From an uncultured Alphaproteobacteria bacterium (GTDB lineage Bacteria > Pseudomonadota > Alphaproteobacteria > Rhizobiales > Xanthobacteraceae), in contig CAWIXM010000045.1 in the NCBI GenBank assembly GCA_963840055.1, forward strand, positions 79,971-143,970: a stretch of DNA of 64,000 bases. Direction: 5' to 3'. This document shows, piece after piece, positions 3,801 through 52,966 of this stretch. A program made the position numbers and the translations under genes. How positions within the stretch are numbered: position 1 is the stretch's first letter; each line of letters begins with the position of its first letter. The notes under the pieces are model-generated. The model was given only the letters and a program-made list of their open reading frames with translations. It did not search any database and was not told the DNA's origin.

Positions 3801-4286
3801 CGCGAGCGGCTGCTCGCCTCATTCGAAACGGTGAACAATCAGTTCAAGCGCCTGTTCGCCGAATTGTTCGGCGGCGGCACGGCGGAGCTGCAACTCATCG
3901 AAAGCGAAGACCCGCTGGAAGCAGGCCTCGATATTCTGGCAAAGCCCCCGGGCAAGAAACCGGCGACGCTGTCGCTCCTCTCCGGTGGCGAGCAAGCGCT
4001 CACCGCGCTCGCGCTGATCTTCGCAGTGTTCCTCACCAATCCGGCGCCGATTTGCGTGCTCGACGAGGTCGACGCGCCGCTCGACGATCAGAACGTCGAT
4101 CGCTTCTGCAATCTGCTCGACGAAATGGCGCGGTCGACCGAAACCCGTTTCCTTATCATCACCCACAACCCGATCACCATGGCGCGGATGAACCGGCTGT
4201 TCGGCGTGACGATGGCCGAGCGCGGCGTTTCTCAGCTCGTATCGGTGGACCTCGAGGGCGCGGTGAAGTTCAAGGAAGCGGTCTGA
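824..4286 (+). pseudogene. smc: chromosome segregation protein SMC, frame broken by a 1-nt shift near 3176-3186 (ORFs 824..3250 and 3258..4286)
   Basis: Walker A GPNGCGKSN, long Ala/Glu/Arg coiled coils, the [15 protein letters not shown] signature and Walker [11 protein letters not shown] are all present. The two parts total 808+342 aa, the normal SMC length of about 1150 aa. The second frame is open from 3162 and reads [27 protein letters not shown] ahead of its listed start, which continues the coiled coil. Confidence 0.9.
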
Positions 4287-8665: not shown

Positions 8666-10241
8666 CTAGTCGACGATGCCCAGACTTTCCCGCAGTCTGA
8701 GAACTTGCGGTCGGAGGCGCTCACAGGCGAGATCGCGCTCGAAACGCAGCACGTCCTTGCGTACAGGGCTCGCGCGCAGACGGACGAGCGTTTCCCGGTC
8801 CTGCTGGCAAGGATCTGAGGAGCGGCTCGATGCGGCTTTCTTGCTGTCCTGTTTCGGCTGCGGGGTGCTTTCGATCGCATTGCTCTGCGGCGTGCGACCT
8901 CCGTCGTCGCCTTCGATCGGCACCGCGGGTGCGACCGCAGCCGCGCCGGTCCCCGGCAGTTCGCCGACAACACTCTCGCGTAGGCGCACGACCTGCAGCC
9001 GAAGCCGCTCGCAGGTAAGCTCCCGCTCCAGATGAATGATCTCGTCCCGCACCGGCTTGGCGCGCAGCCGCGTAAGCTTTTCCTGTTCCTGTTTGCACGA
9101 ATCGACGGCGATGGCCGAAGCGGCGGAACCTGGGGAGGACTCGTGGACATCCTCGGTCGGCTTGGGCTCGAGCTTTGCCTGTTGGTCCTTTTGCGGCGGC
9201 GCCCTGGGCGTTGAATCGCTGTCGTCGCGATTTTGCGGGTCGCGCGAAGCGATGACCGGCGGCAACGCTTTCTCCGCGGTCTCATTGAGCTTGGCGAGTT
9301 GCGCCCGAGCGAGGCCGGCGTAATAGCCAGTGCTGTGCACCTGCAGAAACGACTCCCAGGCCTGCTGCGTGCCGATGCGTTCGGCAAACTCGTAATCCCG
9401 GATATCGTATCTCGAAGCGCTCGAGCCCATCCTCCCCGATGCGATAGCCGGCGGATCGGGGGCCTTGACCAGCGCGATCGTCGTTCCGCCCAGCGAGCCG
9501 TAAACGAATGGCTCCTGTCGGTTCGCGGTCATTTTCAAGACTTCGTCGCGGACTCGGCCCAATGCGATCCTGATGTCGAGGCCGGGTTCGAAGAGGTGTT
9601 TTATCAGCGCCGTGGTGAACGGGCTGTTCGGACCGACGCCATCATAGGAAACGGAGCCCGCCTTTGCCGCGTAGGCGATAAGCGTATTGCCGGCACTGGG
9701 TTCGACCGTGGCAAGGCCGCCAGTCACCGCCCGCACCGCAAGCGTGCGCTGCATCCTGCGAAGGAAGGGATTGTCGCGGCACGCGTCCAGAATGATCAGG
9801 CGCAGCTGCTTGACCGGCTCCACGGCCAGAATGAGGCGTTCGAGCGAGATCGCTTCATCGTCGGCGTCGTAGTCGCTCCGAAGCTTTGCATCCACCGGAA
9901 TGAGATAATTGGAGCCGCGAATCTCGATGCCATGCCCGGCGAAATACACCACTGCGATGTCGGCATCGTGCGCCGTGAACATGAATTCCCGAAGCGCCCG
10001 CTTGAACTCCACCACGCCAAGATCGGTGCGCGAACTCGACGACGTCGAACCCGGCTTTTTCCAACATACGCGCCATCGCCTTCGCATCGCTGACGGTGTT
10101 CGTCAGACTGGAGGCGTTCTGATAGGCCGCATTGCCGATCACGAGCGCAACGCGCCGTTCGGCCAGGGCGTTTGTCGCCGAAATGGCGACGAACGCCAAG
10201 CCGGCCAGCGCGGCCGCTATGGAGATAAGGCGTCGTCGCAT
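8666..10241 (-). pseudogene. exported caspase-family (peptidase C14) protein, frame broken near 10028-10036 (ORFs 9855..10253 and 8666..10087)
   Basis: The ATG at 10241 follows GGAGG. The signal peptide is MRRRLISIAAALAGLAFVAISA. The catalytic His lies in YFAGHG and the catalytic Cys in LDACRDNPF. The two frames join at MLEKAGFDVVE / RTDLGVVEFK. The C-terminus has two 42-aa Cys-containing repeats. Confidence 0.8.
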
Positions 10242-11186: not shown

Positions 11187-11488
11187 CGTTTCGATTCAAT
11201 CTGATCGAATTAATTCGTAGTTGTCGGTGACCTACATCTCACACCATCAACTAGTGTCGCATTCCCTGGATTGCGACAAAAGGGGTGAGGATGCGATTGA
11301 TTATTGTCCGACTTTCCCATCGTGCATAGGATGCACGCAGACAAAGGCGCGGTTCATCGAATAGGCGACATTGTCGCGGATTGACGTGGGTGTTCCAAAC
11401 CTCCGCAAGCGCTGCGCCGCATCGGCAGCTTCTGGGCTCTCGCACGTGTAATTTTCTCGCCCATCGGCGAGCGAACAGGAAGCAGAAA

Positions 11489-13120
11489 ATGAAGTGGCGC
11501 CTGGCACTTCTCCTTCTTTTGATTGTCGGCGCAACGACCAACCTGGGGTTGGCGCAGGCCCAGCAACCCGCGGCGGCCGTTCGGCCGGAGCCGCGGATGG
11601 CTTTGCTCATCGCCAATTCCAACTATCGCGATTCCGATGTGAAGTTGCCCAATCCGGTCAGGGACGCCCGCGCGCTTGCCGAAGAACTGCGGCGCGACGG
11701 CTTCGAGGTGGTGCTCAAAGAAAATCTCGGCAAGGAAGATATGCAGCGAACAATCGACCAGTTCGCGGCCACGATCCCGTCCGGCGCGACGGCATTATTT
11801 TATTTTAGCGGGTTCGGCATTCAGATCAATCGCCAGAATTTTCTTATCCCGACCGACGCGAGAATTTGGTCCGAACGGGACGTGCAACAGGATGAAGTCA
11901 GCGTCGAGCGGATTCTCGGTCAAATTCACGCGAAGGGCGTGAAAGCAATGCTGCTGATTATCGACGCCTCGCGCAAGAACCCGTTCGAGCGACGCTTTCG
12001 CAGCTATTCCGCAGGACTGTCGGCGACGGCCGTTCCCGAGCGCACGGTCGCGATCAGCAGCGCCTCCCTCGACAAGGCGCACGATGACGTCGATGCCAAT
12101 CCAAGTTTGTTCATGGACGAACTGTTGAAAGAGATTCGCTCGCCCAGGTCGGCCACGGCCGAGCAGACCTTTCTGCGCGCCCGCAACGGCGTGGCGCGTG
12201 CGTCAAAGGGTGACCGCGTGCCGTGGATATCGTCGTCCTTGACCGAGGATTTCTATTTCAACCGGCCGAGCGCCGCCGCGTCGACGTCGCCTCCGCCGGC
12301 CGAACCGCTGCCCGCGCGCAAGGCCGAACAGCCCGCTCCGGCCGCTTCGGCGGCGGCGGAGCCGGCGCAGGCGACGCAGGCGACGCAGGCGAGCGGCAAC
12401 ATGCCCGGCGAGACCTTCCGCGATTGCGCCGAATGTCCGCAAATGATCGTCATCCCGGCGGGCGAGTTTGAGATGGGCTCGAACGATACTCCGAGGGAGA
12501 AGCCCGTCCACCGCGTCGGTATCGCGCGCCCGATCGCGATCGGCCGTCGGGAGGTCACGTTTGCGGAATGGGACCAGTGCGTCGCCGCGGGGGCCTGCAG
12601 CTATCGACCAAATGATCGGGGCTGGGGACGAGCCAATCGGCCGGTTATCGATGTCAGCTGGGACGACGCCAAGACATACATCAACTGGCTATCGAAAAAG
12701 ACGGGAAAGCAGTATCGGCTGCCGACGGAAGCCGAGTGGGAATACGCAGCGCGCGCCGGTACTAAATCACCATTCTGGTGGGGACGCGACACGGGGAAAG
12801 GGCTCGCCAACTGCCATGACTGCGGCGCGCCTGACGGTGGATCGAAAACCGCGGCGGCTGGATCGTTCCGGCCCAATGCCTTCGGCTTGTACGATACCGC
12901 CGGCAACGCCGCCGAATGGGTGGAGGACTGCTGGAACGATTCTTATCGCGGCGCCCCGAAAGACGGCTCGGCCTGGACCACCGGTCAATGCGGACTTCGC
13001 GTGCTGCGCGGCGGCTCATTCGGCAACAAGGCAGATGCGGTCCGTTCGCCGGCCCGCTTTCGCTATGACAGGGACGTGCGGTATTTCGCCAATGGTTTTC
13101 GCGTCGCGCGCGACTTGTGA
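11489..13120 (+). CDS. exported pseudo-caspase (C14-like, catalytic His replaced by Phe and Cys by Ser) fused to an FGE-sulfatase/SUMF1-like domain
   Basis: The ATG at 11489 follows AGGAAG, and the signal peptide is MKWRLALLLLLIVGATTNLGLAQA. FYFSGFGIQ aligns with YFAGHGIE of the neighbouring caspase, and IIDASRKNPF aligns with ILDACRDNPF. The C-terminal domain reads AGEFEMGS...RLPTEAEWEYAAR...RGGSF. Confidence 0.8.
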   Translation: MKWRLALLLLLIVGATTNLGLAQAQQPAAAVRPEPRMALLIANSNYRDSDVKLPNPVRDARALAEELRRDGFEVVLKENLGKEDMQRTIDQFAATIPSGATALFYFSGFGIQINRQNFLIPTDARIWSERDVQQDEVSVERILGQIHAKGVKAMLLIIDASRKNPFERRFRSYSAGLSATAVPERTVAISSASLDKAHDDVDANPSLFMDELLKEIRSPRSATAEQTFLRARNGVARASKGDRVPWISSSLTEDFYFNRPSAAASTSPPPAEPLPARKAEQPAPAASAAAEPAQATQATQASGNMPGETFRDCAECPQMIVIPAGEFEMGSNDTPREKPVHRVGIARPIAIGRREVTFAEWDQCVAAGACSYRPNDRGWGRANRPVIDVSWDDAKTYINWLSKKTGKQYRLPTEAEWEYAARAGTKSPFWWGRDTGKGLANCHDCGAPDGGSKTAAAGSFRPNAFGLYDTAGNAAEWVEDCWNDSYRGAPKDGSAWTTGQCGLRVLRGGSFGNKADAVRSPARFRYDRDVRYFANGFRVARDL

Positions 13121-30232: not shown

Positions 30233-31372
<1,140 letters not shown>

Positions 31373-31392
31373 TCAACAACTCTTCGGATCAT

Positions 31393-31713
31393 TTAAGCCT
31401 GTCGCTCCGGCGTTCGCACCACCAGCCCGTCGAGTTCCTCGCTCACCTTGATCTGACAGGACAGACGCGAGTTCGGCCGAACATCATATCCGAAATCGAG
31501 CATATCCTCTTCCATCGCCGCGGGCGGCCCGACTTTCTCGCGCCAAGCCTCGTCGACATACACGTGGCAGGTGGCGCAGGCGCAGGCGCCTCCGCATTCA
31601 GCTTCGATACCGGGCACACCGTTCTTGATCGCCGTTTCCATCACCGTTGCGCCCACTTGGGCGTCGACGGTGCGCTCAGTCCCGGCGACATCAATGTATG
31701 TGATCTTGACCAT
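31393..31713 (-). CDS. 2Fe-2S ferredoxin, adrenodoxin/putidaredoxin type
   Basis: 106 aa. Cluster ligands lie in [12 protein letters not shown] and a later Cys lies in SRLSCQI. Confidence 0.9.
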
Positions 31714-32468
31714 GTGGGTAGCGATAAAGAATGGCAGGGATTGGCAATTTTAAGTAAACTCGCCGCCTCTCATTATCTCAATCGCTCTCTTTGTATAGCT
31801 GCTGAGCAACCCGCGGCCGGCCGCTTGCGCTTTCCTCAACAGAGGGTTTTTTGTCGCCCAGGTAAGCAAATGGCCCCGGCTTTTGACCGGGGCCACTGTC
31901 CGCCGGACGATGTGAGGGGGGGTGGGGGGCTCGTCCAGCTTCCAGGGGTAAAAGTTAGGGCCTCCGTTATCTTTTACAAGGCGGCATCCGCACCCGCTTC
32001 ACTCTGACGCATCCCGCCAGGGCCTGCCGGGACGCGGCCCATCGCCGGCAAATTCACGAGGATGTAGAAGGACATCTCACCATCGACCGGTTCGGTCGGA
32101 ACGGCGGAAGCCGGATCGATCAAGCCGTTTTCAAGCAAGGATCCGCCGATCCCCTCTCGCCCAGCGAGGCCTTGGGGCGCTGTCCGTCATCATCTCGTCG
32201 CCGCATAGCCGCCGCATTGTCGCCGTCAGGCTGGGAGCGCCGAACCCGGCAGGCCCGGCTTTGCGCGTTAACGATGATTAAAAAGAGGTTACCGAACTGG
32301 TTTCCTTGGGGCTGTCAGAACGTTAGGATGCTTGCCTGCGGGGGCAGACGAGCGGCCGTGCCTGCTTGTCTGGGCGTGGCGGCCTTAGTGGCGTGCCCGC
32401 AAATCGGTGGACCCCGACAGTCCTCAGGGCCTCAGTCCTGTTTGGCGTAGCATGCGAGGCGACAAGCA

Positions 32469-35400
32469 ATGGCGAACTATCCGAAAAAGGCCAACGACCC
32501 GACGGAGGTCGCTCTTTCGGCGATTCAAGAGGCGCTGAATATGCGGACTTCCGAGGAGACGTTCGAAGAACCGCTGCCCCCCGACAATCGCTTCGACCCC
32601 CAACCCACCGACGCCGTGCAGGACGAGCCGCACCCGCGGCTTCCCTTCAAGGATGAGCTTCCGCCGTTCCCGGCTCCGCGCAGCCGTGGCGAGGAGGCCT
32701 TGCGCCGAGCCGCCAATGACGACCGCGAGACCATCGGGCAGGTGCTGCAGTCCCTCCAACGTCGGCCGACGCGGACGCCCTACATCGTCGCCGCGCTATT
32801 CGCCGCCGCTTGGGCGATCTCGGCGCTAGGCGTCGCACTCGGCTACTGGACGGAACTGAAGAGCATGTTCGCGCAGGCGAGCGTCGCCGTACCGCTTGCA
32901 GTCGCGCTCTTGTCGGGATTCGCCGCGCCGATCCTGTTCTTCTTTGTGCTCGCGCACATGGTGGCGCGCTCGCAGGAGTTGCGATACGTCGCCCAGGCGA
33001 TGGCGCGCGCCGCCGTCCGTTTCGTCGAACCGGAATCGATCGCCAATGATTCGATCGTAACCGTTGGCCAGGCGATCCGCCGCGAAGTCGCCGCGATGGG
33101 CGACGGGGTCGAGCGAGCGGTCGCCCGCGCTGCGGAGCTCGAAGCGCTGGTCAGCAGCGAGGTCGCCGCGCTCGAACGGGCCTACGACGACAACGAGATG
33201 CGCATCCGCGGCCTCATCGACGGCATCGCCCAACAGCGCGAGACGCTGGTCGGCGAAGCCGAACAAGTGCGCAACGCCGTCAGCAATGTACATGTCGACC
33301 TGTCGCATGACATTTTCACCGCGAGCGAGATGATCAGCGAACGCGTCAACGAGCTGTCGCAACGGATCACCAATGCGCTCGCCGAAGAGGTGACGCTCAA
33401 GACCAATCAGCTCAGCGAAACGATCGTCGAAATCGCCGGCAACATGCAGGAAATGCTGGCGAGCCGTGTCACTCGGATCGCCGACGAATTATCCGAGAAG
33501 TCGTTGTCGCTGGTCGAGATGATGGAGACCCGTTCGCGCGAGATCGTCGGAACGGTGCTTGCCCAGTCGGACGCGGTCACCAATACGCTCGTCGACACAT
33601 CAGGCCGGATCACCGAGACGATCGCGAGCCGTGTCGACGAGGTGAACAACACCCTGAAAACGACCGGCGACTCGATCGTGCTGGACCTTAGCCTGCGCGG
33701 CGGCGACATCGTCGCCAAGCTGGAGGAGACCGGTGGACGCGTCACCGAATCCCTGAATGCGCGCGGCGGGGACTATACGCAGGCGCTCACCCAGAACGCG
33801 GCCGAATTGGTGGACGCGATCCAGGTGCGTGGCGACGCGACGCGCGAGATGCTGGCCGAACGTCTCGCCGCCTTTGAAGCCATTCTCACCGAAGGGACGG
33901 CCGCGCTCACCGATCGGATCGGGGTGCGCAGCGATACCGCTTACGACATGCTGGCTGAACGCCTTGCGACCTTCGAGGACATCCTCGCCAACGGCACGAA
34001 CGAGCTTGCCGACCGGCTCACCTCGCGCGGCGACGCAGTGCGCGACATGCTGGCCGAACGCCTCGCCGCCTTCGAAGCCACTCTCACCGAAGGGACGGCC
34101 GCGCTCACCGATCGGGTCGGGGCGCGCAGCGATGCCGCGTACGGCTTGCTGGCTGAACGCCTTGCGACCTTCGAGGACATCCTCGCCAACGGCACGAACG
34201 AGCTTGCCGACCGGCTCACCTCGCGCGGCGACGCAGTGCGCGATATGCTGGCCGAACGCCTGCAGACGCTCGAGGGCATCTTCGCCCATGGCGGCGGCGA
34301 CTTCGCCGAGCGGATCGACATGCTCTCCGAGCGGCTTAAGGCGTTCGAGGAGATATTCACCAAGGACGGCCGCGAGCTCGCGGAACGGCTTGGACGCGAC
34401 ACGACGACGCTCGGCAGCCTAATCACCCGCCATCTGTCCGAATTCGATCGGACCGTGAAGATCTATGGAGGCGAGCTGGTTGAGCGGATCGATCAGCGCA
34501 CGCAAGACATTAACGAGACGATGAAGGCTTATGTCGACGGGTTCGACGAGCTGATCGATGCGAAAACAAGCGAGGTCGGGGCGACGCTCGAAAGTCAGTT
34601 GGTTCGCTTCGAGGACGCCCTGGATTCGCGCACACATTCGATCGGCGCCACCTGGGCTGCGCGCGTCGCCGAAATGAGCAAGAGCGTCGGCGAGAGCAGT
34701 AGGGATGTGGTCGCGACGCTCGACAGGCGCATCAACGAGATCACTGGCATTATCGCTAGCAGCGGCACGAATTTTGTCGAGACAATCGGCGCCAGGCTGG
34801 TGGCGCTCGACAGCTCGCTTGGCGCGCATGCGAGCGACATTGCCGACGCCCTTGACGGGCGGATCGCGCGGCTCGAGGACCTGCTGATCAACCGGGCGGA
34901 GGCGCTCACAACCGGCATCGAGTCACGCAGCCAAGCGGCCGCCGATCTGTTGTTCGACCGCGCCAATTCCATCACGCGCGACATCGAATCGCGCACCCAA
35001 GCCACAGCCGACCTCCTGCTCGGCCGAGCCAACTCCGTCGCCGCCGAAATCGAGACGTCCGCGAAGACTGCAACCGGTAATCTGTTGGATCGCGCCAGTT
35101 CTGTCGTCGCCGAGATCGAGACCCGCACGCGAACCGCAGCGGATCACCTGCTTGGAACTGCCAGTTCCGTCGCGACCTCGGCCGATCAGCTCCTCAGCCG
35201 CGCCGAGACAGTCGCTGGCGACATCGAAGCGCGCAACAGAGCCGCGGGCGATCAGCTGCTTGCGCGCGCCGAATCGATCGCGAGCGAGATTGAGAACCGC
35301 ACCAAGGCGGCGGCGGCCCTGGCTATGGAGAACGCCGGTTTGATCGCAAACGATGTCGACGCCCGTGCCAAAGCGGCGACTGATCTTTTGGCCGACCGCG

Positions 35401-38400
35401 TCGGGGCGGTCATCGCCAGCGTTGAGCAGTCGACCGGGTCGGCAGCAGAAACGCTTGCCGGCCGCGTGACCCAGCTTGCCGCTGAGATCGCGAACCGCAG
35501 CGACACCTCGGCGTCGTTGATCACCAGCCGGTTCGACGAATTCGCGCGCGACGTCGAAGTCCGCAGCAATACCGCCGCTTCGTTCCTGACCCAGCGGCTG
35601 GACAGCTTCGGCACGGACATGCAGGTCAAGAGCGACAGCGCGGCCGGATTCTTGGCCGAGCGCGCCGAGACCGCGGCGCGCTCCATCGAAGAGCGCAGCC
35701 ATACGGCGATCGAGTTCTTCGTAACGCGGCTCGACACGGCGACGGACGGGGCAGAGCAACGCAGTCGATCGGCTACCGAAGGACTGGCGGGCCGTCTCGA
35801 GCAGCTCTCCGCCGCTGCTGCTACGAGCGCCAGCGGCGCGCAACAAGCGATGGAATCGCTGATCGCTCGGACAACCGCCGCGATCGATGGCAGCGCGGAG
35901 GTCTGCGAAACGCGCGCCGGCGATATCGAGACCCTGCTGCGCAGACTCGCGAGCGAGATTGAGAACCGCACCAAGGCGGCGGCGGCCCTGGCCATGGAGA
36001 ACGCCGGTTTGATCGCAAACGATGTCGACGCCCGTACCAAAACGGCGGCTGATCTTTTGGCCGACCGCGTCGGGGCGGTCATCGCCAGCGTTGAGCAGTC
36101 GACCGGGTCGGCAGCAGAAACGCTTGCCGGCCGCGTGACCCAGCTTGCCGCTGAGATCGCGAACCGCAGCGACACCTCGGCGTCGTTGATCACCAGCCGG
36201 TTCGACGAATTCGCGCGCGACGTCGAAGTCCGCAGCAATACCGCCGCTTCGTTCCTGACCCAGCGGCTAGACAGCTTCGGCACGGACATGCAGGTCAAGA
36301 GCGACAGCGCGGCCGGATTCTTGGCCGAGCGCGCCGAGACCGCGGCGCGCTCCATCGAAGAGCGCAGCCATACGGCGATCGAGTTCTTCGTAACGCGGCT
36401 TGACACGGCGACGGACGAGGCAGAGCAACGCAGTCGATCGGCTACCGAAGCGCTAGCGGGCCGTCTCGAGCAGCTCTCCGCCGCTGCTGCTACGAGCGCC
36501 AGCGGCGCGCAACAAGCGATGGAATCGCTGATCGCTCGGACAACCGCCGCGATCGATGGCAGCGCGGAGGTCTGCGAAACGCGCGCCGGCGATATCGAGA
36601 CCCTGCTGGGCAGACTGTTGTCGGATCTCGGCGGCACGCTCAAGCGCGACGCCGCCGAACTGCAGCAGCTGCTGACCACGGCATCCGCGGAGGTGAGCGG
36701 AGCGCTCAAGCAGGACGTGGCCGAAGCCGAGCGCGCGCTTGGCGAGTTCGGGTCGAGTCTGCGCATGACGTTCAAACAAGATGCGGCCGAGGCCGAGCAA
36801 CTGCTTGGCGTGGTGGTCGGCCGCCTGAGCGGCACGATGAAGCAGGAAGCGGTCGACGTCGAGCGGCTGCTGGCGACGATTTCTTCCGGACTGCGTGAGG
36901 GGATCAAGCAGGACACAGCCGCGGTGAAGAACATGCTGACCACGCTCTCCACCAGCGTCGGCGACACGCTGAAGCGGGACGCGGCGGAGGTCGAGCGCAC
37001 GCTGACCACCCTCTCCTCGGGCATGAGCGGCACGCTCCGACAGGACACGGCGGAGGTCGAGCGCATGCTGACCGCCCTCTCCTCGGGCATGAGCGGCACG
37101 CTCAAGCAGGATGCGGCCGAGGTCGAGCGCATGCTCACCACTTTCGGGGGCATGAGCGACACGCTCAAGCAGGATGCGGCCGAGGTCGAGCGCATGCTGA
37201 ACGCCGCTTCCTCCGATATGGGCAGCGCGCTCAAGCAGAATTCCGCCGATGTCGAACGCTTGCTGGCCGCCATGTCCGCGGGAATGAGCAGCATGATCAA
37301 GAAAGACGCGGCGGAGGTCGAGCGGACGTTCGCGGAACTTTCTACGCGGATGAACGAGACGCTTCGACACGACGCGGCGCAGATCGAGCGAATGCTCGAA
37401 ACCCTGTTCACCGCGATGAGCGGATCGCTTAAGCACGATGCGGCGGAGGTCGAACGGCTCATCACCTCCGTGTCGTCCGGCATGAGCAATCTGCTCAAGG
37501 AGGATGCCGCCGAGGCGAATCGCGTGCTCAGCGCCCTGTCCGCCCATATGAGCGAAATGTTGAAGCACGACACCACCGCGCTCGAACAGACGCTTGCGGC
37601 GGCCGCGGCGAACGCCAGCGGCTCGGTCAGGCAGAACGCGACCGACGTCGAGCAGAGCTTGCGCGAACTCAGCGCGGACGTCGCCCGCAATTTCGTCGGC
37701 AAGGCCGATGAGATCGTGGCCGCGGTCGAGAATCGATGCGCTGACCTCAATCGGATTCTCGACGAGAAGAGCAACAGCCTGATCAATGCGCTCACCGTCA
37801 AGGGAAGCGAATTCACCGATGGCATGACGCGAATCACCGACGAGGCGGTGAAATCGATCGAGACGAAGGGTTTCGCCTTCACTCAGACGATGGTGGACAA
37901 CAGCAATGAACTCACGCGCCTGATCACCGAGGCGAGCGTGACGGCGACCGGCGCCGTCACTCGCAACCTCAAAGAGCTGCAGGACACGTCGCGCAGTTCT
38001 ATCGGCGAATCTGCCGCCGCCCTGACCAAGCGCATGCAGGACTGGCAGGAGACGACGAGAACGACGGTCGCGCAGTCCTCCGCCAATCTGACGCAGACTC
38101 TGCACGAACTGCACGAGACGGTGCGCGCCTCCGCCGACCAGGCGATCGCCACCCTCACTCAGAAGGCGCAGGAACTGCAAGAGACCACGCACACTTCGGT
38201 CACGCAATCGACCGCGTTGCTCACGCAGAAGGTGCATGAGCTACGTGACACGGCGCATACGGCCGTTACGCACTCTACCGCCGATCTGTCGCAGCGGACG
38301 CACGAGCTGCAGCAGGTCACCCGACAGATGGTGGAGGAATCGGTCACGGCGATCACGCAGCGGATGGAAGAGCTGCAACAATCGACGCAAGGCGCGGTCG

Positions 38401-39995
38401 AGCAGTCGAAGCAGACCGGGATCGCGGCCGTCGCCGAGATTCTCGAGACGCACGGAATGCTGCGCTCCGACACGACCGCTTTGTTTGAGCGGCTGCGTGA
38501 GGCGAACGAGCTTATCCGAGAGGTTCTGAGCGGCGCGCAGGATAATCTCTTCGCGATCGAGCAAACCCTGTCTTCGCGCTTCAATCAGTTCCTCGAGTCG
38601 ATGAACCTGCTGCTGTCGCGCACGAGCTCGACGACGGACAAGGTCTCGGATGGCCTCGGGTCTTTCCAGGACATCACCGGCAAGGTGCTGAGTGAGCTCG
38701 GCGACGTCGCGATGCAGTTCGACCGTCATGGCCGTTTGCTCTCCGCCATGCTGGAACTGGTCGAAGGAACCAGCCGGCGTACCGAAGAAGCCGTAACCGA
38801 GCGGCAGCAGGAGCTCGACAACGCGGTCACCGCGCTCGATACCCGCACCGAGGCCATCGATCTGCGCCTGAAGCAGTTCTCCGGGCTGCTCGAGGAGTCG
38901 CTCGTCGCGGCGGAAGCCCGCGCGAACGACATCGTGCGCCTCGTGGCGGAGGTCAGCGCGCAGGGCGCCGACGTCATCGCCGATCACCATCAGCGGATCC
39001 GCGCCGCGTCCGACGAGGAGCGGCAACGCACGATGGAGACGCTGCACGGGGTCTATGAGCAGGCGTCGAACGAGACTCACGCGCTGTTCCAGCAAACCGC
39101 GAGCGAAGCAGAGGCCATGCTGCAGAGCGCGACCGATCGCTTCTCCGACGTATTGCAATCGGTGCGGCAGATGTCCGCCGCAATGCAGCGCGACCTGGAA
39201 GGCGCGCGCGAAGAGCTGCGCCGCGGCATTTTCCAGCTGCCGCAGGAGACCACCGACATCGTCGGCGAGTTACGGCGGGTGATCGTCGATCAGATCGAGG
39301 CGTTGGCGGAACTGAACCAGATCGTCGCCCGCCACGGCCGCAACATCGACGCCACGACGACCGAGCCGGCGCGGCGCATCTATCGCGAAGAACCCTTGCT
39401 CGCGAGCGTCAGCGGAGGACGGCATGAGGCCCCGCCGCCGCGGCAAATGCCGCCGGTGGAGCACCTCGAGCCTCCCGCCGCGCCGCCGCCGCCCCACCGC
39501 GCCGAAGCGCTTGCGCCGGAGAACGACAAGACCCGCGGCGGCTGGTTGTCCGACCTGTTGAGCCGCGCCTCTCGCGACAATGACGAGGAACCGGAGCCGG
39601 AGGAACAGCCGGCGCGTGGGGATGGGCATACGGATGAGCGTTTGGTGCGTCATACGATCGAGTCGCTCGATTCGCTCTCGGTCGACATCTCCCATATGAT
39701 CGATCACGATGCCGCCGCCGAGCTGTGGGACAGGTACAATCGCGGCGAACACAATGTCTTTACCCGGCAGCTCTACACCATTCAGGGTCAGAAGACCTTC
39801 GAGGAAATCCGCAGGCGGTATCACGCCGACCGCGATTTCAAGGATACCGTCGATCGCTATATCGATGAATTCGAGCAGCTGCTCGAACAGGTCTCACGCA
39901 ATGATCGCGGGCGGGCCGTCGCCAGCACCTACCTCACTTCGGAAACGGGCAAGGTGTACACGATGCTCGCCCATGCAGCGGGCCGGCTCGGATAG
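32469..39995 (+). CDS. giant (2,508 aa) membrane-anchored apolipoprotein-like repeat protein; growth-pole-ring (GPR)-like candidate
   Basis: This is a single open frame. Two N-terminal TM helices are followed by about 2,000 aa of Ala/Glu/Arg/Thr-rich helical repeats with 22/33/66/223-aa units, a Pro-rich linker and a unique C-terminal domain. A strong terminator lies at 40026. Confidence 0.85.
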   Translation: MANYPKKANDPTEVALSAIQEALNMRTSEETFEEPLPPDNRFDPQPTDAVQDEPHPRLPFKDELPPFPAPRSRGEEALRRAANDDRETIGQVLQSLQRRPTRTPYIVAALFAAAWAISALGVALGYWTELKSMFAQASVAVPLAVALLSGFAAPILFFFVLAHMVARSQELRYVAQAMARAAVRFVEPESIANDSIVTVGQAIRREVAAMGDGVERAVARAAELEALVSSEVAALERAYDDNEMRIRGLIDGIAQQRETLVGEAEQVRNAVSNVHVDLSHDIFTASEMISERVNELSQRITNALAEEVTLKTNQLSETIVEIAGNMQEMLASRVTRIADELSEKSLSLVEMMETRSREIVGTVLAQSDAVTNTLVDTSGRITETIASRVDEVNNTLKTTGDSIVLDLSLRGGDIVAKLEETGGRVTESLNARGGDYTQALTQNAAELVDAIQVRGDATREMLAERLAAFEAILTEGTAALTDRIGVRSDTAYDMLAERLATFEDILANGTNELADRLTSRGDAVRDMLAERLAAFEATLTEGTAALTDRVGARSDAAYGLLAERLATFEDILANGTNELADRLTSRGDAVRDMLAERLQTLEGIFAHGGGDFAERIDMLSERLKAFEEIFTKDGRELAERLGRDTTTLGSLITRHLSEFDRTVKIYGGELVERIDQRTQDINETMKAYVDGFDELIDAKTSEVGATLESQLVRFEDALDSRTHSIGATWAARVAEMSKSVGESSRDVVATLDRRINEITGIIASSGTNFVETIGARLVALDSSLGAHASDIADALDGRIARLEDLLINRAEALTTGIESRSQAAADLLFDRANSITRDIESRTQATADLLLGRANSVAAEIETSAKTATGNLLDRASSVVAEIETRTRTAADHLLGTASSVATSADQLLSRAETVAGDIEARNRAAGDQLLARAESIASEIENRTKAAAALAMENAGLIANDVDARAKAATDLLADRVGAVIASVEQSTGSAAETLAGRVTQLAAEIANRSDTSASLITSRFDEFARDVEVRSNTAASFLTQRLDSFGTDMQVKSDSAAGFLAERAETAARSIEERSHTAIEFFVTRLDTATDGAEQRSRSATEGLAGRLEQLSAAAATSASGAQQAMESLIARTTAAIDGSAEVCETRAGDIETLLRRLASEIENRTKAAAALAMENAGLIANDVDARTKTAADLLADRVGAVIASVEQSTGSAAETLAGRVTQLAAEIANRSDTSASLITSRFDEFARDVEVRSNTAASFLTQRLDSFGTDMQVKSDSAAGFLAERAETAARSIEERSHTAIEFFVTRLDTATDEAEQRSRSATEALAGRLEQLSAAAATSASGAQQAMESLIARTTAAIDGSAEVCETRAGDIETLLGRLLSDLGGTLKRDAAELQQLLTTASAEVSGALKQDVAEAERALGEFGSSLRMTFKQDAAEAEQLLGVVVGRLSGTMKQEAVDVERLLATISSGLREGIKQDTAAVKNMLTTLSTSVGDTLKRDAAEVERTLTTLSSGMSGTLRQDTAEVERMLTALSSGMSGTLKQDAAEVERMLTTFGGMSDTLKQDAAEVERMLNAASSDMGSALKQNSADVERLLAAMSAGMSSMIKKDAAEVERTFAELSTRMNETLRHDAAQIERMLETLFTAMSGSLKHDAAEVERLITSVSSGMSNLLKEDAAEANRVLSALSAHMSEMLKHDTTALEQTLAAAAANASGSVRQNATDVEQSLRELSADVARNFVGKADEIVAAVENRCADLNRILDEKSNSLINALTVKGSEFTDGMTRITDEAVKSIETKGFAFTQTMVDNSNELTRLITEASVTATGAVTRNLKELQDTSRSSIGESAAALTKRMQDWQETTRTTVAQSSANLTQTLHELHETVRASADQAIATLTQKAQELQETTHTSVTQSTALLTQKVHELRDTAHTAVTHSTADLSQRTHELQQVTRQMVEESVTAITQRMEELQQSTQGAVEQSKQTGIAAVAEILETHGMLRSDTTALFERLREANELIREVLSGAQDNLFAIEQTLSSRFNQFLESMNLLLSRTSSTTDKVSDGLGSFQDITGKVLSELGDVAMQFDRHGRLLSAMLELVEGTSRRTEEAVTERQQELDNAVTALDTRTEAIDLRLKQFSGLLEESLVAAEARANDIVRLVAEVSAQGADVIADHHQRIRAASDEERQRTMETLHGVYEQASNETHALFQQTASEAEAMLQSATDRFSDVLQSVRQMSAAMQRDLEGAREELRRGIFQLPQETTDIVGELRRVIVDQIEALAELNQIVARHGRNIDATTTEPARRIYREEPLLASVSGGRHEAPPPRQMPPVEHLEPPAAPPPPHRAEALAPENDKTRGGWLSDLLSRASRDNDEEPEPEEQPARGDGHTDERLVRHTIESLDSLSVDISHMIDHDAAAELWDRYNRGEHNVFTRQLYTIQGQKTFEEIRRRYHADRDFKDTVDRYIDEFEQLLEQVSRNDRGRAVASTYLTSETGKVYTMLAHAAGRLG
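33831..34290 (+). repeat. in-frame 198-bp (66-aa, 2 x 33 aa) tandem units within the giant gene
   Basis: Units start at 33831, 34029 and 34227 (GDAxRxMLAERLAAFEAxLTEGTAALTDR.G.RSD.AY..LAERLATFEDILANGTNELADRLTSR). Units 1 and 2 share a stretch of more than 100 bp that is nearly identical. Confidence 0.85.
35280..36617 (+). repeat. near-identical in-frame 669-bp tandem duplication within the giant gene
   Basis: 35280..35948 and 35949..36617 each encode 223 aa (ASEIENRTKAAAALAMENAGLIANDVDAR...AGDIETLL.RL). I saw about ten nucleotide differences by eye. Confidence 0.9.
36639..37691 (+). repeat. sixteen in-frame 66-bp (22-aa) tandem repeats within the giant gene
   Basis: The units have the form LK.DAAEVER.L...SSGMSGT. 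One unit is 21 aa, and the total of 351 codons fits exactly. Confidence 0.9.
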
Positions 39996-40025
39996 CGACG
40001 GCAGGAAACCCGATAACTTGCGATG

Positions 40026-40053
40026 GGGCGCGCCAGCATGGCGCGCCCTTTTT
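40026..40053 (+). terminator. rho-independent terminator of the giant gene
   Basis: 9-bp G/C stem GGGCGCGCC / GGCGCGCCC with loop AGCAT, followed by TTTTT. Confidence 0.8.
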
Positions 40054-40074: not shown

Positions 40075-40929
40075 TTAACGTCGTCGCAAATACCGGCCGC
40101 CCGCCGGCCGCGCCGGCGCGCCGCCGAACAAGAGCCTGCTCGGATTCTGGTCGATATTCTTGACCGTCTCCTCGAGGGTCAGGATCGCCCGCCGGCCGTC
40201 AACCGCGAGCTTTTCCCATTCGCGCAGGCCCGAATTACTGAACCGCGCCAGGCCGGTCGACACTTCGGAGACGTTCTTGTCGAGATTGTCGGCGAGCGAA
40301 CGCACCGAACGCGCGGCTTCGGCGATATCGTTTAGCTTCGCGTCCGCTCCGCTGACCACGCCGTCGGCGTTGGCGATGATGCGCTCGATGCGGTCCGCAT
40401 TGTTCGCGAGCGTCCCGGTGAACACTTCCAAGTTCTTGAGCGAAGTGCGCACGGAGGTTTCGTTCTCGGTTACGACCGTATCCAGCCGCCGCAGCACGCT
40501 GCGGGCCGCCGAACTCAGGTCCTGGGTTGAGGCGAGATCAGCGTGCAAGATCGGCGGATCGAGCACCGGCGAGGTCGCCGAGCCGCCGCGCAGCGCGATG
40601 GTGGCGAAGCCGGTCAAGCCCTGAAATTCCAGGCCGACGCCGGTGTCCTGGCGCAACACGACATCCTTATCGACGTAGATGACGGCGATCACCTGGCGCG
40701 GGGCGTCAGGATCGATCCGCAAGCTCGCCACCTCGCCCACCCGCAGTCCATTGAACAGCACCCAGCCGCCCGGCTTCAGTCCCGAGACCGTGCCGTCGAA
40801 CACGACTTCGTAACGCTTGCGCTCGGGCCCGCTGCTCGGGGAGTTGAACCAGTAGACGAAACCGAAACCGCCGGCGATCACCGCCAGCGCGAACAGGCCC
40901 ACCAGGATGTAGTTCGCTCTTGTTTCCAT
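40075..40929 (-). CDS. MlaD/MCE family protein (ABC transporter periplasmic component)
   Basis: An N-terminal anchor (METRANYILVGLFALAVIAGGFGFVYW) is followed by an MCE domain (VVFDGTVSGLKPGGWVLFNGLRVGEV). It is the last gene of a permease-ATPase-MCE operon. Confidence 0.85.
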   Translation of the reverse strand: METRANYILVGLFALAVIAGGFGFVYWFNSPSSGPERKRYEVVFDGTVSGLKPGGWVLFNGLRVGEVASLRIDPDAPRQVIAVIYVDKDVVLRQDTGVGLEFQGLTGFATIALRGGSATSPVLDPPILHADLASTQDLSSAARSVLRRLDTVVTENETSVRTSLKNLEVFTGTLANNADRIERIIANADGVVSGADAKLNDIAEAARSVRSLADNLDKNVSEVSTGLARFSNSGLREWEKLAVDGRRAILTLEETVKNIDQNPSRLLFGGAPARPAGGRYLRRR

Positions 40930-40947
40930 GCGCCTGGTCCCCTCGCC

Positions 40948-41736
40948 TCAGGCTATCCGGGCTGCGCCGTTTGCGCGCGAACGCTTGCCGCGGAAATACG
41001 CCTTCACCCAGGGATGGTCGGATGCGAGCATGGCCGCCATCGGCCCGGCGGTTATCACCTTGCAATCCGCCAACACGGCGATCCGGTCGCAGACCGAATG
41101 CAGGCTATCGAGATCGTGGGTTACCATGAAAACGGTTAATCCCAAAGTCTGTTGTAACGTCTTGATCAGAAGGTCGAATTCGCCTGCGCCGATGGGGTCG
41201 AGTCCGGAGGTCGGTTCGTCCAGAAACACGATCTCCGGGTCGAGCGCCAAGGCTCGCGCGAGCGCGACGCGTTTGATCATGCCACCAGATAATTCCGCCG
41301 GATATTTGTCGCCGACATCGGGCGTCAGCCCGACCATTTCGAGCTTGGCGGCCGCAATTTCGTCCATCAGCCGGCGCGACAGGCGCAGATGCTCGCGCAT
41401 CGGGAACTGCACGTTCTGGCGCACGGTCAGCGAGGAGAACAACGCGCCCTGTTGAAACAGCACGCCCCAGCGCCGTTCGAGCGCGCGGCGGGCATCCTCG
41501 CTCAGCCCGTCGAGGTCGATCCCGAACACGGCCACCCGTCCGGCGCGGCGCGGCAACAGGCCGATGATCGTGCGCATCAGCACCGACTTGCCGACGCCGG
41601 AGGCGCCGACGAAGCCGAGGATCTCGCCCCGCAATACATCAAGTGAGACGCCGTCGAGCACAATCGCCTCGCCGAAGCCGACGATGAGGTCGCGGACCTT
41701 GATCACCGCTTCGTTGCCCGCCGCCGCCATGCTCAC
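40948..41736 (-). CDS. ABC transporter ATP-binding protein (MlaF-like)
   Basis: Walker A GASGVGKS, signature LSGGMIKRVALARA and Walker B IVFLDEPTSGLD are present. Confidence 0.9.
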   Translation of the reverse strand: MSMAAAGNEAVIKVRDLIVGFGEAIVLDGVSLDVLRGEILGFVGASGVGKSVLMRTIIGLLPRRAGRVAVFGIDLDGLSEDARRALERRWGVLFQQGALFSSLTVRQNVQFPMREHLRLSRRLMDEIAAAKLEMVGLTPDVGDKYPAELSGGMIKRVALARALALDPEIVFLDEPTSGLDPIGAGEFDLLIKTLQQTLGLTVFMVTHDLDSLHSVCDRIAVLADCKVITAGPMAAMLASDHPWVKAYFRGKRSRANGAARIA

Positions 41737-42863
41737 ATTCCAACCGCGCCGAAGAACACGGCGAACAGCCCGTCGAGCACGACGACGAGGAAAATCGATT
41801 TTACCACCGAAGCCGTCGTGTGCAGCCCGAGCGATTCGGCGCTCCCTTCCACGCTCAGCCCTTCGACGCAGGCGACAATTCCGATCGTGAGCGCGATGAA
41901 CGGCGCTTTCACGATGCCGACGACGAAATCATCGACCGAGATCGCGTCGCGCAGCCGAGACAGAAAGATTTCCGGGCTCATGCCCGCTGTAAGCCAGCAA
42001 ACCAGAAACGCCCCGAACAGCGCCGTTATAGCCCCGATGAAAGCGAGCGCCGGCAGCGCAACCACCAGCGCGACGACACGCGGCAGGATCAGGATTTCCA
42101 TCGGGTCGAACCCCATGGTGCGCAGCGCGTCGATCTCCTCGCGCATTTTCATCGAACCGAGTTCGGCGGTGTAGGAGCTGGCGGAGCGCCCAGCGACCAT
42201 CATCGACACCATGACCACGCCCAGCTCCCGCAACACCAAAATGCCGACCATGTCGATCACATAGATTTCGATGCCGAAGCGGCGGAAATGGAATAGGCCT
42301 TGCTGCGCGATGATCCCGCCGAGCAGCAAGGTGATCAAAAAGATGATCGGCACTGCGCGAAGGCCGACGCGGTCGAGATGATGGATCATCGAGGTGAAGC
42401 GGAACGTCCATGGCCGCATCAGGCACCGCGCGCCGGCGATGGAGACGGCTCCCAGCATCTGGATGATCTGGAGAAGATCGTAGCCCAGCGCCAGCGCGCC
42501 GCGCCGGAACGCGCTCAATAAAGTCGCGAACATGGGGCTGCGGGCCGATGACGCTTCGGCACGATTGACGTGTTGCGCCTCGGCGATGAGTTCGCGGTAG
42601 CGCTCGGGCAGATCGACCACTTTGGTCTCGCGTCCGACCGCCGCAAATCCGCGCACCAGCCGTTCCAGCAGCCAAGCGCCGAAGGTATCGAGCCGCTCCA
42701 CCCGGCCCATATCGATATTGACGGCGGTCGCTTGCAGCGAGCGTTGGATCGCACCTTCGACGAGCCGCTCAAGATCGTTGGCGTGATCGGCGGTCCATGC
42801 GCCGCCGGCGGCGAGCGCAAGCCGCCCGTCTTTCACGCTGACTTCCAACAAGGAGCTGTCCAC
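41733..42863 (-). CDS. MlaE family ABC permease with N-terminal STAS-like domain
   Basis: An N-terminal region of about 110 aa resembles an anti-sigma-antagonist domain. A permease core with five hydrophobic segments follows. The stop overlaps the ATPase start by 4 nt. Confidence 0.85.
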   Translation of the reverse strand: MDSSLLEVSVKDGRLALAAGGAWTADHANDLERLVEGAIQRSLQATAVNIDMGRVERLDTFGAWLLERLVRGFAAVGRETKVVDLPERYRELIAEAQHVNRAEASSARSPMFATLLSAFRRGALALGYDLLQIIQMLGAVSIAGARCLMRPWTFRFTSMIHHLDRVGLRAVPIIFLITLLLGGIIAQQGLFHFRRFGIEIYVIDMVGILVLRELGVVMVSMMVAGRSASSYTAELGSMKMREEIDALRTMGFDPMEILILPRVVALVVALPALAFIGAITALFGAFLVCWLTAGMSPEIFLSRLRDAISVDDFVVGIVKAPFIALTIGIVACVEGLSVEGSAESLGLHTTASVVKSIFLVVVLDGLFAVFFGAVGM

Positions 42864-52086: not shown

Positions 52087-52857
52087 TCACGCGAACCTTG
52101 CGCGCGCAAGTAAGTCTGTTCGGTCAAGTCTATGTAGCGCGTCGATGATGCCCGTGGCGAGGCTGCCCGGCCCGCGAGCCGTCTCGGCCGCTATCTCGCC
52201 GGCAATGGACAGCGCGAGCACCCCGGTTCCCGTCGCCCGCCAAGGGTCGGGCTCCACCGCGAGGCAGGCCGCGACCAAACCCGCGCCGGCGCAGCCCATG
52301 GCAGTGACCAACGACATCCACGGATGGCCATTGGCGATGCGGATCGACTTCGCGCCATCGGTGACAAGATCGGTTTCTCCCGTCAGCGCGATCACTGCTC
52401 CGACGTCCCTCGCATAGCGAGCGGCGGCCGTCGCAGTGGCGCGGCTCGCAGCGATGGTCAGGAACTCACGATCATTGAGATGCATGGCTGTCGGCCGCAT
52501 ACGCACAAGCGCCTCGGCGAAAATGGCGCGTCCTTGCGAGCGGTCGATAAACACCGGGTCGAAAATCCAGCGCACGCCCAGTTCACTCGCCTTGTCGATC
52601 GCGATCCCGATCGCCTCACGGCGTGAGGCGTCGAGCGTTCCGAGATTGACAAGCATTGCGTCGGCGCCTCTGACGAAATCGGCGACCTCGTCGGGCGCGA
52701 TGGTCATCGTCGGCATGGCGCCAACCGCCAACAGTATATTGGCGGTGAACGTCTGCGCGACCGCGTTGGTGACGCAATGCACGCGTGGGCGGAGCTGGCG
52801 CAAGCGTCCAAGAATGTCGGCGGCGATTAACGGAAATTCGCCTTCCGGCGCACGCAT
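52087..52857 (-). CDS. thiM: hydroxyethylthiazole kinase
   Basis: Contains VHCVTNAVAQTFTANILLAVGAMPTM and GMGCAGAGLVAACLAV-type motifs. It lies downstream of a TPP riboswitch and upstream of thiD. Confidence 0.9.
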   Translation of the reverse strand: MRAPEGEFPLIAADILGRLRQLRPRVHCVTNAVAQTFTANILLAVGAMPTMTIAPDEVADFVRGADAMLVNLGTLDASRREAIGIAIDKASELGVRWIFDPVFIDRSQGRAIFAEALVRMRPTAMHLNDREFLTIAASRATATAAARYARDVGAVIALTGETDLVTDGAKSIRIANGHPWMSLVTAMGCAGAGLVAACLAVEPDPWRATGTGVLALSIAGEIAAETARGPGSLATGIIDALHRLDRTDLLARARFA

Positions 52858-52861
52858 CTCA

Positions 52862-52966
52862 AACTCCCTTCGCCGGCATGACCCGGATCAGGTTCGACGG
52901 GTTGGCCAAAGCCTCTCAGCCCGACGGCGAATTCCGTCGGACACCCCGTTGAGATCGCCCGTGAAA
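52862..52966 (-). promoter_or_regulatory. TPP (THI-box) riboswitch
   Basis: The minus strand reads CGGGGTGTCCGACGGAATTCGCCGTCGGGCTGAGAGGCTTTGGCCAACCCGTCGAACCTGATCCGGGTCATGCCGGCGAAGGGAG. This contains the conserved GGGGTG, CTGAGA, ACCTGATC-GG-T-ATGCC-GCG and AGGGA elements. The 3' GGGAG doubles as the thiM Shine-Dalgarno sequence. Confidence 0.9.

Follow-up and report, generated by a model that had tools for sequence, protein, structure and literature searches.

Here, we describe a giant gene in a 64,000-nucleotide stretch of DNA (hereafter, the window) from an uncultured alphaproteobacterium (NCBI GenBank assembly GCA_963840055.1, contig CAWIXM010000045.1, positions 79,971 to 143,970). The gene lies at 32469-39995 on the forward strand. 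It very probably encodes an ortholog of the growth-pole-ring protein GPR of Agrobacterium tumefaciens, known as RgsE in Sinorhizobium meliloti and Brucella abortus, in a Rhodoplanes-like member of the Hyphomicrobiales (we put the probability at about 0.85). Sequence, architecture, and gene neighborhood agree with one another, and together they argue for orthology with GPR/RgsE.

An earlier note on this DNA, made from the sequence alone, had suggested a link to GPR and, failing that, an uncharacterized giant envelope scaffold. It had staked the link on detectable similarity in the terminal domains, and we find such similarity at both ends. The sequence of GPR (Atu1348) was taken from Fig. S3 of Zupan et al. 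2021 (PMC8262873) as optical character recognition (OCR) text, which yields 2,099 of its 2,115 residues. With the low-complexity filter on, BLASTP aligns amino acids (aa) 1-270 with GPR 1-270, starting from Met1 of both proteins (37% identity, E = 8e-28), and the last 340 aa with the last 340 of GPR (40% identity, E = 3e-65). The C-terminal alignment crosses the Pro-rich linker and the GGW(L/I)SDLL motif and reaches the penultimate residue, with ...GKVYTMLAHAAGR in both proteins. Full-length BLASTP alignments with GPR are colinear. RgsE/GPR homologs have been reported in all Rhizobiales families (PMC7327166), and the family is neither rare nor uncharacterized.

The comparison with the Pfam Apolipoprotein family that had been proposed also came out positive. 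PF01442 scores 245.1 bits against a cutoff of 90, spread over 15 stretches of the protein. The Pfam scan gave nothing significant besides this family, NCBIfam gave no family and noise matches only, and the only matches in a PDB sequence search are weak ones to apolipoprotein A-IV (E ~2e-4). The domains of GPR itself have been defined by apolipoprotein A-IV, and PF01442 matches are reported for it (PMC8262873). Published descriptions of GPR and RgsE list two N-terminal transmembrane (TM) helices, a continuous helical stretch of ~1,700 aa in which PF01442 matches occur, a Pro-rich region, and a C terminus that is essential. In GPR, a 110-aa Pro-rich region lies at the place that corresponds to the linker of the window protein.

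Protein anatomy and the helical rod

The gene and its product can be divided as follows.

32469-39995, + strand: likely GPR/RgsE ortholog gene (gpr); ATG at 32469, stop at 39995; one open reading frame (ORF), 2,508 aa
32469-32774, + strand: predicted cytoplasmic N-terminal region, acidic and Pro-rich, aa 1-102; the start MAN..K..DPTE.A.SAI..AL is conserved
32775-32966, + strand: membrane hairpin; TM1 aa 103-127, loop of ~10 aa, TM2 aa 137-166
32967-33248, + strand: conserved juxtamembrane segment, aa 167-260 (...EPESIA..I..VGQAIRREVAAMGDGVERAVARAAELE...), from the GPR alignment
33033-39239, + strand: Pro-free alpha-helical rod, aa 189-2257, from the Pro count and hydrophobic period
38436-39365, + strand: conserved nonrepetitive C-terminal helical module, aa ~1990-2299; includes ...RRGIFQLPQE...RRVIVDQIEALAELNQIVARHGR
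39366-39611, + strand: Pro-rich low-complexity linker, aa 2300-2381, with a conserved GGWLSDLL motif
39648-39992, + strand: conserved C-terminal domain of ~115 aa (RHTIESLDSLSVDI...GKVYTMLAHAAGRLG), predicted all-helical

This anatomy agrees with what the earlier note had read from the letters: a single uninterrupted ORF, an acidic Pro-rich N terminus followed by two hydrophobic helices, and a Pro-rich linker before a nonrepetitive tail. The frame is intact over 7.5 kb, with a GAGG ribosome-binding site ~10 nt 5' of the ATG, and Ala, Leu, Glu, Thr, Arg, and Ser predominate in the 2,508-aa product. Within aa 1-102, there are 15 Pro and 19 Asp and Glu residues. Hydropathy places the two hydrophobic segments at aa 103-127 and 137-166, where GPR has its own, and an Arg-rich stretch follows TM2. 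The juxtamembrane segment is the best-conserved part of the N-terminal alignment with GPR; in the closest relative, a Rhodoplanes metagenome-assembled genome (MAG; locus L001), identity in the aa 201-300 bin is 94%. Several long minus-strand ORFs within gpr (e.g., 35252-37882) were considered and rejected as genes, being shadows of high-GC repetitive sequence.

The C-terminal domain contains many invariant columns in an alignment of 57 sequences. Modeled with AlphaFold2 (AF2), the C-terminal 165 residues come out entirely helical, with a mean predicted local distance difference test (pLDDT) score of 65 that rises to ~75-88 over the final 65 residues. A Foldseek search of this model against the PDB gave no match below E = 0.5, and a PDB profile search gave only weak coiled-coil matches, located on the helical part.

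Between the termini, the protein contains no proline from Pro188 to Pro2258, a span of 2,068 residues. At 0.15 nm per residue, the rod would measure ~310 nm if it formed one extended helix. The earlier note had proposed that this region follows a hendecad (11-residue) pattern, and the hydrophobicity spectrum of aa 191-2200 supports that view. Its one sharp peak lies at 3.66 residues (11/3 = 3.667) and has a power of 890, ~10 times the maximum of 87 obtained from 100 shuffles. All sub-segments up to ~aa 1990 peak at 3.65-3.67, and eight orthologs share the same rod period (3.660-3.665). In an 11/3 helical-wheel plot, large hydrophobic residues occupy 49-77% of positions a, e, and h, flank position d is 35% Arg or Lys, and the opposite face is acidic or polar. 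Such a narrow a/e/h stripe, running parallel to the helix axis, suits straight helices that are packed laterally or lie on a surface.

Beyond ~aa 1990, the hydrophobic period falls to ~3.6 (3.58-3.62) and the phase rotates steadily, which is likewise seen in all orthologs that were traced. This shared change indicates that helices assemble differently in the conserved C-terminal module.

Tandem repeats, rod length, and phase

The rod is built largely from nested tandem repeats, all encoded on the + strand.

33827-34321, + strand: 33/66-aa tandem repeats (R[GS]D....MLAERLA.FE..L..GT..L.DR...), in 99/198-nt units
34914-35277, + strand: 22-aa IE.R...A.DLL..RA..V repeats
35278-36615, + strand: 669-nt (223-aa) unit in tandem duplicate, copies at 35278-35946 and 35947-36615
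36624-37679, + strand: ~16 units of 22 aa (..G.LKQDAAEVERML..LS.), one unit being 21 aa
37965-38426, + strand: seven 22-aa units (..ELQ.T....V..S...LTQ)

Each repeat family that the earlier note had listed is present where the note had put it. The 198-nt copies of the 33/66-aa units are 93% identical, the 22-aa IE.R..A.DLL units begin at 34914, and the ~seven L.ELQ.T units number seven. The sixteen LK.DAAEVER.L units are recovered as ~16, with 15 in-register copies at 66-nt spacing and one spacing of 63 nt. The two 223-aa copies are 98% identical, with 11 mismatches. The further claim that all repeat lengths are multiples of 11 holds for most units; it fails for the duplicated unit, which at 223 aa is 20x11+3, and for the 21-aa unit of the large array. 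Self-similarity computed with BLOSUM peaks at lags of 22, 66, 44, 223, 88, and 33 aa.

The 669-nt duplication appears to be recent and specific to the source genome, as judged from sequence comparison. The 223-aa lag is not seen in the self-similarity of eight orthologs, and L001, the nearest relative, is without ~183 aa at the duplication site, i.e., roughly one copy. The same observations could be read as a warning that, within a real ORF, the repeat architecture is partly an assembly artifact, with the duplication, and hence the length of 2,508 aa, representing an expanded repeat. The duplication also makes the window protein an outlier among the length classes described below, and public assemblies often split or truncate orthologs. 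We nevertheless regard an artifact as unlikely. Of the 11 differences between the copies, five fall at third codon positions, which argues for two real, slightly diverged copies and fits poorly with a duplicated read path. The frame stays open across 7.5 kb, and two relatives have equally long proteins (2,497 and 2,647 aa). L001 is itself a short-read MAG, in which repeat collapse is likelier than expansion.

A further point on the side of an artifact comes from elsewhere in the window, where the smc gene looks frameshifted, so the assembly may hold errors. This gene is present as two ORFs in different frames: 824-3250 (+ strand, 808 aa), with the N-terminal head and hinge, and 3258-4286 (+ strand, 342 aa), with the C-terminal head. 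The apparent frameshift near 3250 is either an assembly error or a pseudogene, and it justifies some caution over assembly indels.

Intact orthologs range from 1,104 to 2,647 aa (median 1,923), placing the window protein among the longest. To compare rods, we measured the distance between two anchors, GQAIRRE after the hairpin and RRVIVDQI in the C-terminal module, in 49 proteins. Across orthologs, lengths from anchor to anchor span 697-2,160 aa, and nearly all are congruent to 8 or 4 (mod 11). Class 8 comprises 36 of the 49 proteins, from Bosea, Chelatococcus, and the Rhodoplanes MAG L001, with 24 distinct lengths (1,328-1,724). Class 4 comprises 11 of the 49; short Xanthobacteraceae-type rods (697-862 aa) also belong to this class, under slightly different matching criteria. 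The exceptions are the window protein (remainder 1), L007 (10), and L066 (7). The existence of two classes indicates that insertions and deletions in the rod are almost always multiples of 11 residues. This pattern could reflect selection on register, or simply recombination between repeat units of 11n residues.

In the window protein, the anchors are 2,069 residues apart, giving a remainder of 1 (mod 11); this distance exceeds that in L001 by 367 (33x11 + 4). Phase was traced in eight relatives (L001, L003, L011, a Bosea, L013, L015, and two Rhizobiaceae). In these, the 11/3 phase drifts by less than ~70° along the whole variable rod, giving a near-straight stripe over 800-2,000 residues. In the window protein, the phase makes a full turn in approximately five steps between aa ~580 and ~1,560 (window 34200-37150). 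Four of the steps are ~+65°, equivalent to +3 residues, and one, at the 21-residue unit, is ~+98°. Each 223-aa copy holds one +3 register shift, so that two of the steps fall within the duplication. The final phase of the rod lies within ~30° of that of L001. For Atu1348, the OCR text is adequate for BLAST, but the residues dropped from it make the phase trace meaningless and the mod-11 class unreliable.

These regularities invite a broader, though doubtful, reading, in which the GPR/RgsE rod is a hendecad-quantized molecular ruler. Rod length would be changed almost only in 11-residue steps, a straight stripe would link the membrane anchor to the C-terminal module, and the dimensions of the polar ring, or how wide the pole is, would be fixed by rod length. 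If this were true, the window protein would be a natural variant in which the stripe makes one circuit of the helix through five register shifts (four of +3 and one of -1, plus a +4). The restoration of end-to-end phase to within ~30° would then imply selection on the relative orientation of the two ends.

Gene neighborhood, promoter, and expected role

The distribution and surroundings of the gene further support its orthology with GPR/RgsE. When the last 267 aa were used to search one genome per species, 80 loci were returned, 79 of which are labeled as Hyphomicrobiales or as broader taxa. The exact sequence of the window protein was looked up in public assemblies and is not recorded there. 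The best matches are Rhodoplanes MAGs (68-82% identity), and NCBI taxonomy places Rhodoplanes within the Hyphomicrobiales. In the closest of these, L001, the neighbors are 92-96% identical to those in the window. At E <= 1e-30, the C-terminal module matches 712 representative clusters, and almost all of the top 150 carry it at the C terminus of the protein. The one locus with another label, L062 (contig DATDCH010000051.1, 2,973 bp), is a C-terminal-domain match in a Kofleriaceae (Myxococcota) MAG and is probably a mis-binned Hyphomicrobiales fragment. In public assemblies, the ortholog is often truncated or called as at least two ORFs (e.g., L081 4822-11668 and L082 4548-11026). Names on fragments of the family are inconsistent, are best disregarded, and include kinesin, MlaD, ElaB/YqjD, chemoreceptor (methyl-accepting chemotaxis protein), and DivIVA.

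Three neighboring features are as follows.

30233-31261, - strand: thioredoxin-reductase-like flavoprotein, divergent from gpr
31393-31713, - strand: 2Fe-2S ferredoxin, 106 aa, divergent from gpr
40075-42863, - strand: Mla-type lipid-transport operon, convergent to gpr, encoding MlaD, an ABC ATPase (MlaF), and MlaE with an N-terminal STAS domain

Upstream of gpr, the window encodes a GDSL-type protein, a pyridine-nucleotide-disulfide oxidoreductase (- strand), and the 106-aa 2Fe-2S ferredoxin (- strand). Beyond the Mla genes are an MR_MLE-family enzyme (+ strand), an MFS transporter (- strand), and a metallophosphoesterase. A survey of synteny across the Hyphomicrobiales, which the earlier note had called for, shows that this arrangement is widely kept: most of the ~70 loci with readable flanks retain the ferredoxin upstream, and the Mla genes and/or MR_MLE downstream. 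With the GPR C terminus as query, the protein database yielded Rhizobiaceae proteins, and the Rhizobiaceae were compared through the Rhizobium anhuiense locus of one of them, in place of the Atu1348 locus. Its order is Fer2, (Hpt), gpr, three unrelated genes, MlaD-ABC-MlaE/STAS, MR_MLE, MFS, and metallophosphoesterase. Unlike the window, Rhizobiaceae loci carry an additional Hpt gene that separates the ferredoxin gene from gpr. The proximity of Mla genes and gpr is kept from Rhodoplanes to Bosea, Chelatococcus, Bradyrhizobium, and Rhizobium.

Two candidate upstream genes that had appeared conserved by tblastn were rejected. The 219-aa orf219 (31348-32007, + strand) is an antisense shadow of the ferredoxin gene on the opposite strand, and orf92 (32172-32450) is kept in the closest relatives only and spans the promoter and 5' untranslated region (UTR). 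Elsewhere in the window, there is a thiamine pyrophosphate (TPP) riboswitch at 52846-52958 (- strand; Rfam 63.8 bits, above the gathering score). The window also encodes two caspase-domain (Peptidase_C14) proteins, at 8666-10087 (- strand) and 11381-13120 (+ strand), the second fused to an FGE-sulfatase-like domain.

Candidate regulatory elements lie on both sides of gpr.

32268-32292, + strand: two overlapping candidate CtrA-type boxes (TTAACGATGATTAAA, TTAAAAAGAGGTTAC), one mismatch each to TTAA-N7-TTAA
32324-32329, + strand: TAGGAT, likely -10 element, a nearly invariant block in a 17-locus alignment, ~45 nt 3' of the box
40025-40049, + strand: intrinsic terminator, an 11-bp stem with 9 GC pairs followed by TTTTT, 30 nt past the stop codon

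TTAA-N7-TTAA(C) and TTAACCAT are the full-site and half-site motifs of CtrA. The boxes, which include a TTAACGAT half-site, lie ~190 bp before the ATG, and they account for two of the four matches to TTAA-N7-TTAA (at most one mismatch) in the 64-kb window. Of 73 loci, 72 have a box of this kind 130-366 bp (mostly 176-310 bp) 5' of the ortholog start; the background rate is 0.008 per 450 bp. In two Rhizobiaceae loci, the sole such boxes in 21 kb fall in the intergenic region upstream of gpr, and some of them are perfect. The core of the box, CGTTAACGATG, is invariant in the 17-locus upstream alignment. Because the upstream boxes match the full-site and half-site motifs of CtrA and are conserved, CtrA control is the likeliest reading, and transcription of gpr is probably under cell-cycle control. 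If TAGGAT is a promoter element, the 5' UTR would be ~130 nt; a simple sigma-70 scan did not call this element. Rfam recognizes no known RNA in the 755-bp upstream region. At the other end of the gene, the Mla genes are convergent to gpr with a strong terminator between them and are thus not cotranscribed with it. gpr is probably monocistronic.

What the protein does can be anticipated from characterized orthologs. In Agrobacterium, six foci of GPR make up a ring of 200 nm close to the growth pole. Cells that lose GPR become round and their peptidoglycan synthesis is delocalized, whereas slight overexpression gives ectopic poles. C-terminal fusions disturb the protein, and its C-terminal 221 residues are essential. 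RgsE of S. meliloti is found at the new pole only, with TolQ, RgsA, and RgsS as partners (Krol et al. 2020, PMC7327166), and RgsE of Brucella abortus is also at the new pole (Servais et al. 2023). Loss of the ortholog causes shape defects in Agrobacterium, Sinorhizobium, and Brucella, and a two-TM, cytoplasm-facing topology has been published for both GPR and RgsE. By analogy with these experiments, the window protein is expected to be a polar-growth (budding-pole) scaffold of its host. The two-helix N-terminal hairpin would anchor it in the inner membrane, with the bulk of the protein facing the cytoplasm. At the new pole, where the cell grows or buds, it would build a ring-like scaffold, and by directing where membrane and peptidoglycan are made this scaffold would set rod shape. 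The tail would be required for the protein to work, and self-assembly would depend on the rod. The 11/3 period predicts helices that are straight and not supercoiled, packed side by side or along the membrane surface.

Several points weigh against this picture, or parts of it. The polar-ring location and role assigned to the window protein come from work on orthologs with only 24-40% identity to it. S. meliloti does not strictly require RgsE, and Krol et al. raise the prospect that distant homologs of RgsE have other roles (PMC7327166). The a/e/h stripe is compatible with both helix-helix packing and binding to a membrane surface, and does not tell one from the other. The stripe of the window protein rotates, and its length is off-class (mod 11), so its assembly geometry could differ from that of its relatives. 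As for CtrA, the proposed control draws on motif conservation, and no paper linking CtrA to gpr or rgsE was found in the literature searched.

The protein could be a GPR descendant with a different job in place of organizing polar growth, such as anchoring lipid bodies or intracytoplasmic (photosynthetic) membranes, or giving them their shape, by means of its apolipoprotein-like amphipathic helices. Lipid droplets are a reported location of bacterial PF01442 proteins (PMC8262873), the conserved neighbors include an Mla-type lipid-transport operon, other roles are suggested by Krol et al. for distant homologs, and the phase pattern of the rod is atypical for the GPR family. This idea seems improbable to us. 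The terminal modules, which are essential in GPR, are strongly conserved, and the genomic context is the same as in Rhizobiaceae. The roles suggested by Krol et al. concern homologs outside the Rhizobiales, whereas the source genome lies within this order. The Mla genes, for their part, are convergent and separated from gpr by the terminator, with no cotranscription.

We give almost no credence to a generic coiled-coil protein unrelated to GPR and annotated by composition (chemotaxis, kinesin, MlaD, DivIVA, or SMC-like): database names on fragments of relatives are of this kind and there are weak coiled-coil matches in the PDB, but Pfam and NCBIfam hold no signature here for methyl-accepting chemotaxis protein, kinesin, MlaD, or DivIVA, the nonrepetitive termini match GPR specifically, and the period is 11/3, not heptad.

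Comparison with known systems

The GPR/RgsE family is already known as a scaffold for one-ended growth in Agrobacterium and its relatives. Rhodoplanes species are described as budding phototrophs, and our identification places the GPR/RgsE scaffold in a Rhodoplanes-type genome. This supports the published view that unipolar growth across the Hyphomicrobiales includes GPR/RgsE as a conserved component, and it corrects the misleading names (kinesin, MlaD, chemoreceptor) carried by fragments of the family. New, and modestly interesting, are the Pro-free rod, its 11/3 period, the mod-11 quantization of its length, the one-turn stripe, the genome-specific 669-nt duplication, and the conserved CtrA-type box. 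The Pro-free rod, the 11/3 stripe, the 11-residue length steps, and the CtrA-type box provide concrete constraints on how the ring is built, a question left open by the GPR papers. These family regularities leave the basic picture of the protein unchanged, and the locus is not a new kind of system.

The closest counterpart is GPR of Agrobacterium tumefaciens (Zupan et al. 2019 and 2021). The N terminus, hairpin, juxtamembrane segment, C-terminal helical module, linker, and tail are homologous in the two proteins, both have a PF01442-rich helical rod, and both begin with MAN... and end with ...GKVYTMLAHAAGR. They differ in length (2,115 aa in GPR versus 2,508 aa in the window protein). Their rods are only ~24% identical and consist of different repeat families, with the recent 223-aa duplication in the window protein. 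Ring formation has been demonstrated for GPR, whereas the window protein is known from its sequence. RgsE of S. meliloti and B. abortus (SMc00190) belongs to the same family, is predicted to be cytoplasmic with a two-TM anchor, and is likened to the window protein through its published description.

Exchangeable apolipoproteins (apoA-IV, apoA-I, and apoE) share with the rod its 11/22-residue amphipathic repeats and a PF01442 score above the gathering threshold. Such apolipoproteins are soluble, 250-400 aa long, and have prolines that mark off their 22-mers. Unlike them, the window rod is Pro-free over its whole span and membrane-anchored, with a narrow a/e/h stripe and Arg on one flank only. 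An exchangeable (lipid-transport) apolipoprotein in the functional sense is therefore ruled out by the size of the protein (2,508 aa), its hairpin, the absence of Pro from aa 189 to 2257, and the narrow stripe.

Perilipins, alpha-synuclein, and LEA proteins likewise use 11/3 periodicity to keep a hydrophobic face straight along the helix. They have no sequence relationship to the window protein, and their repeats extend over tens to a few hundred residues, in contrast to ~2,000 in the window rod.

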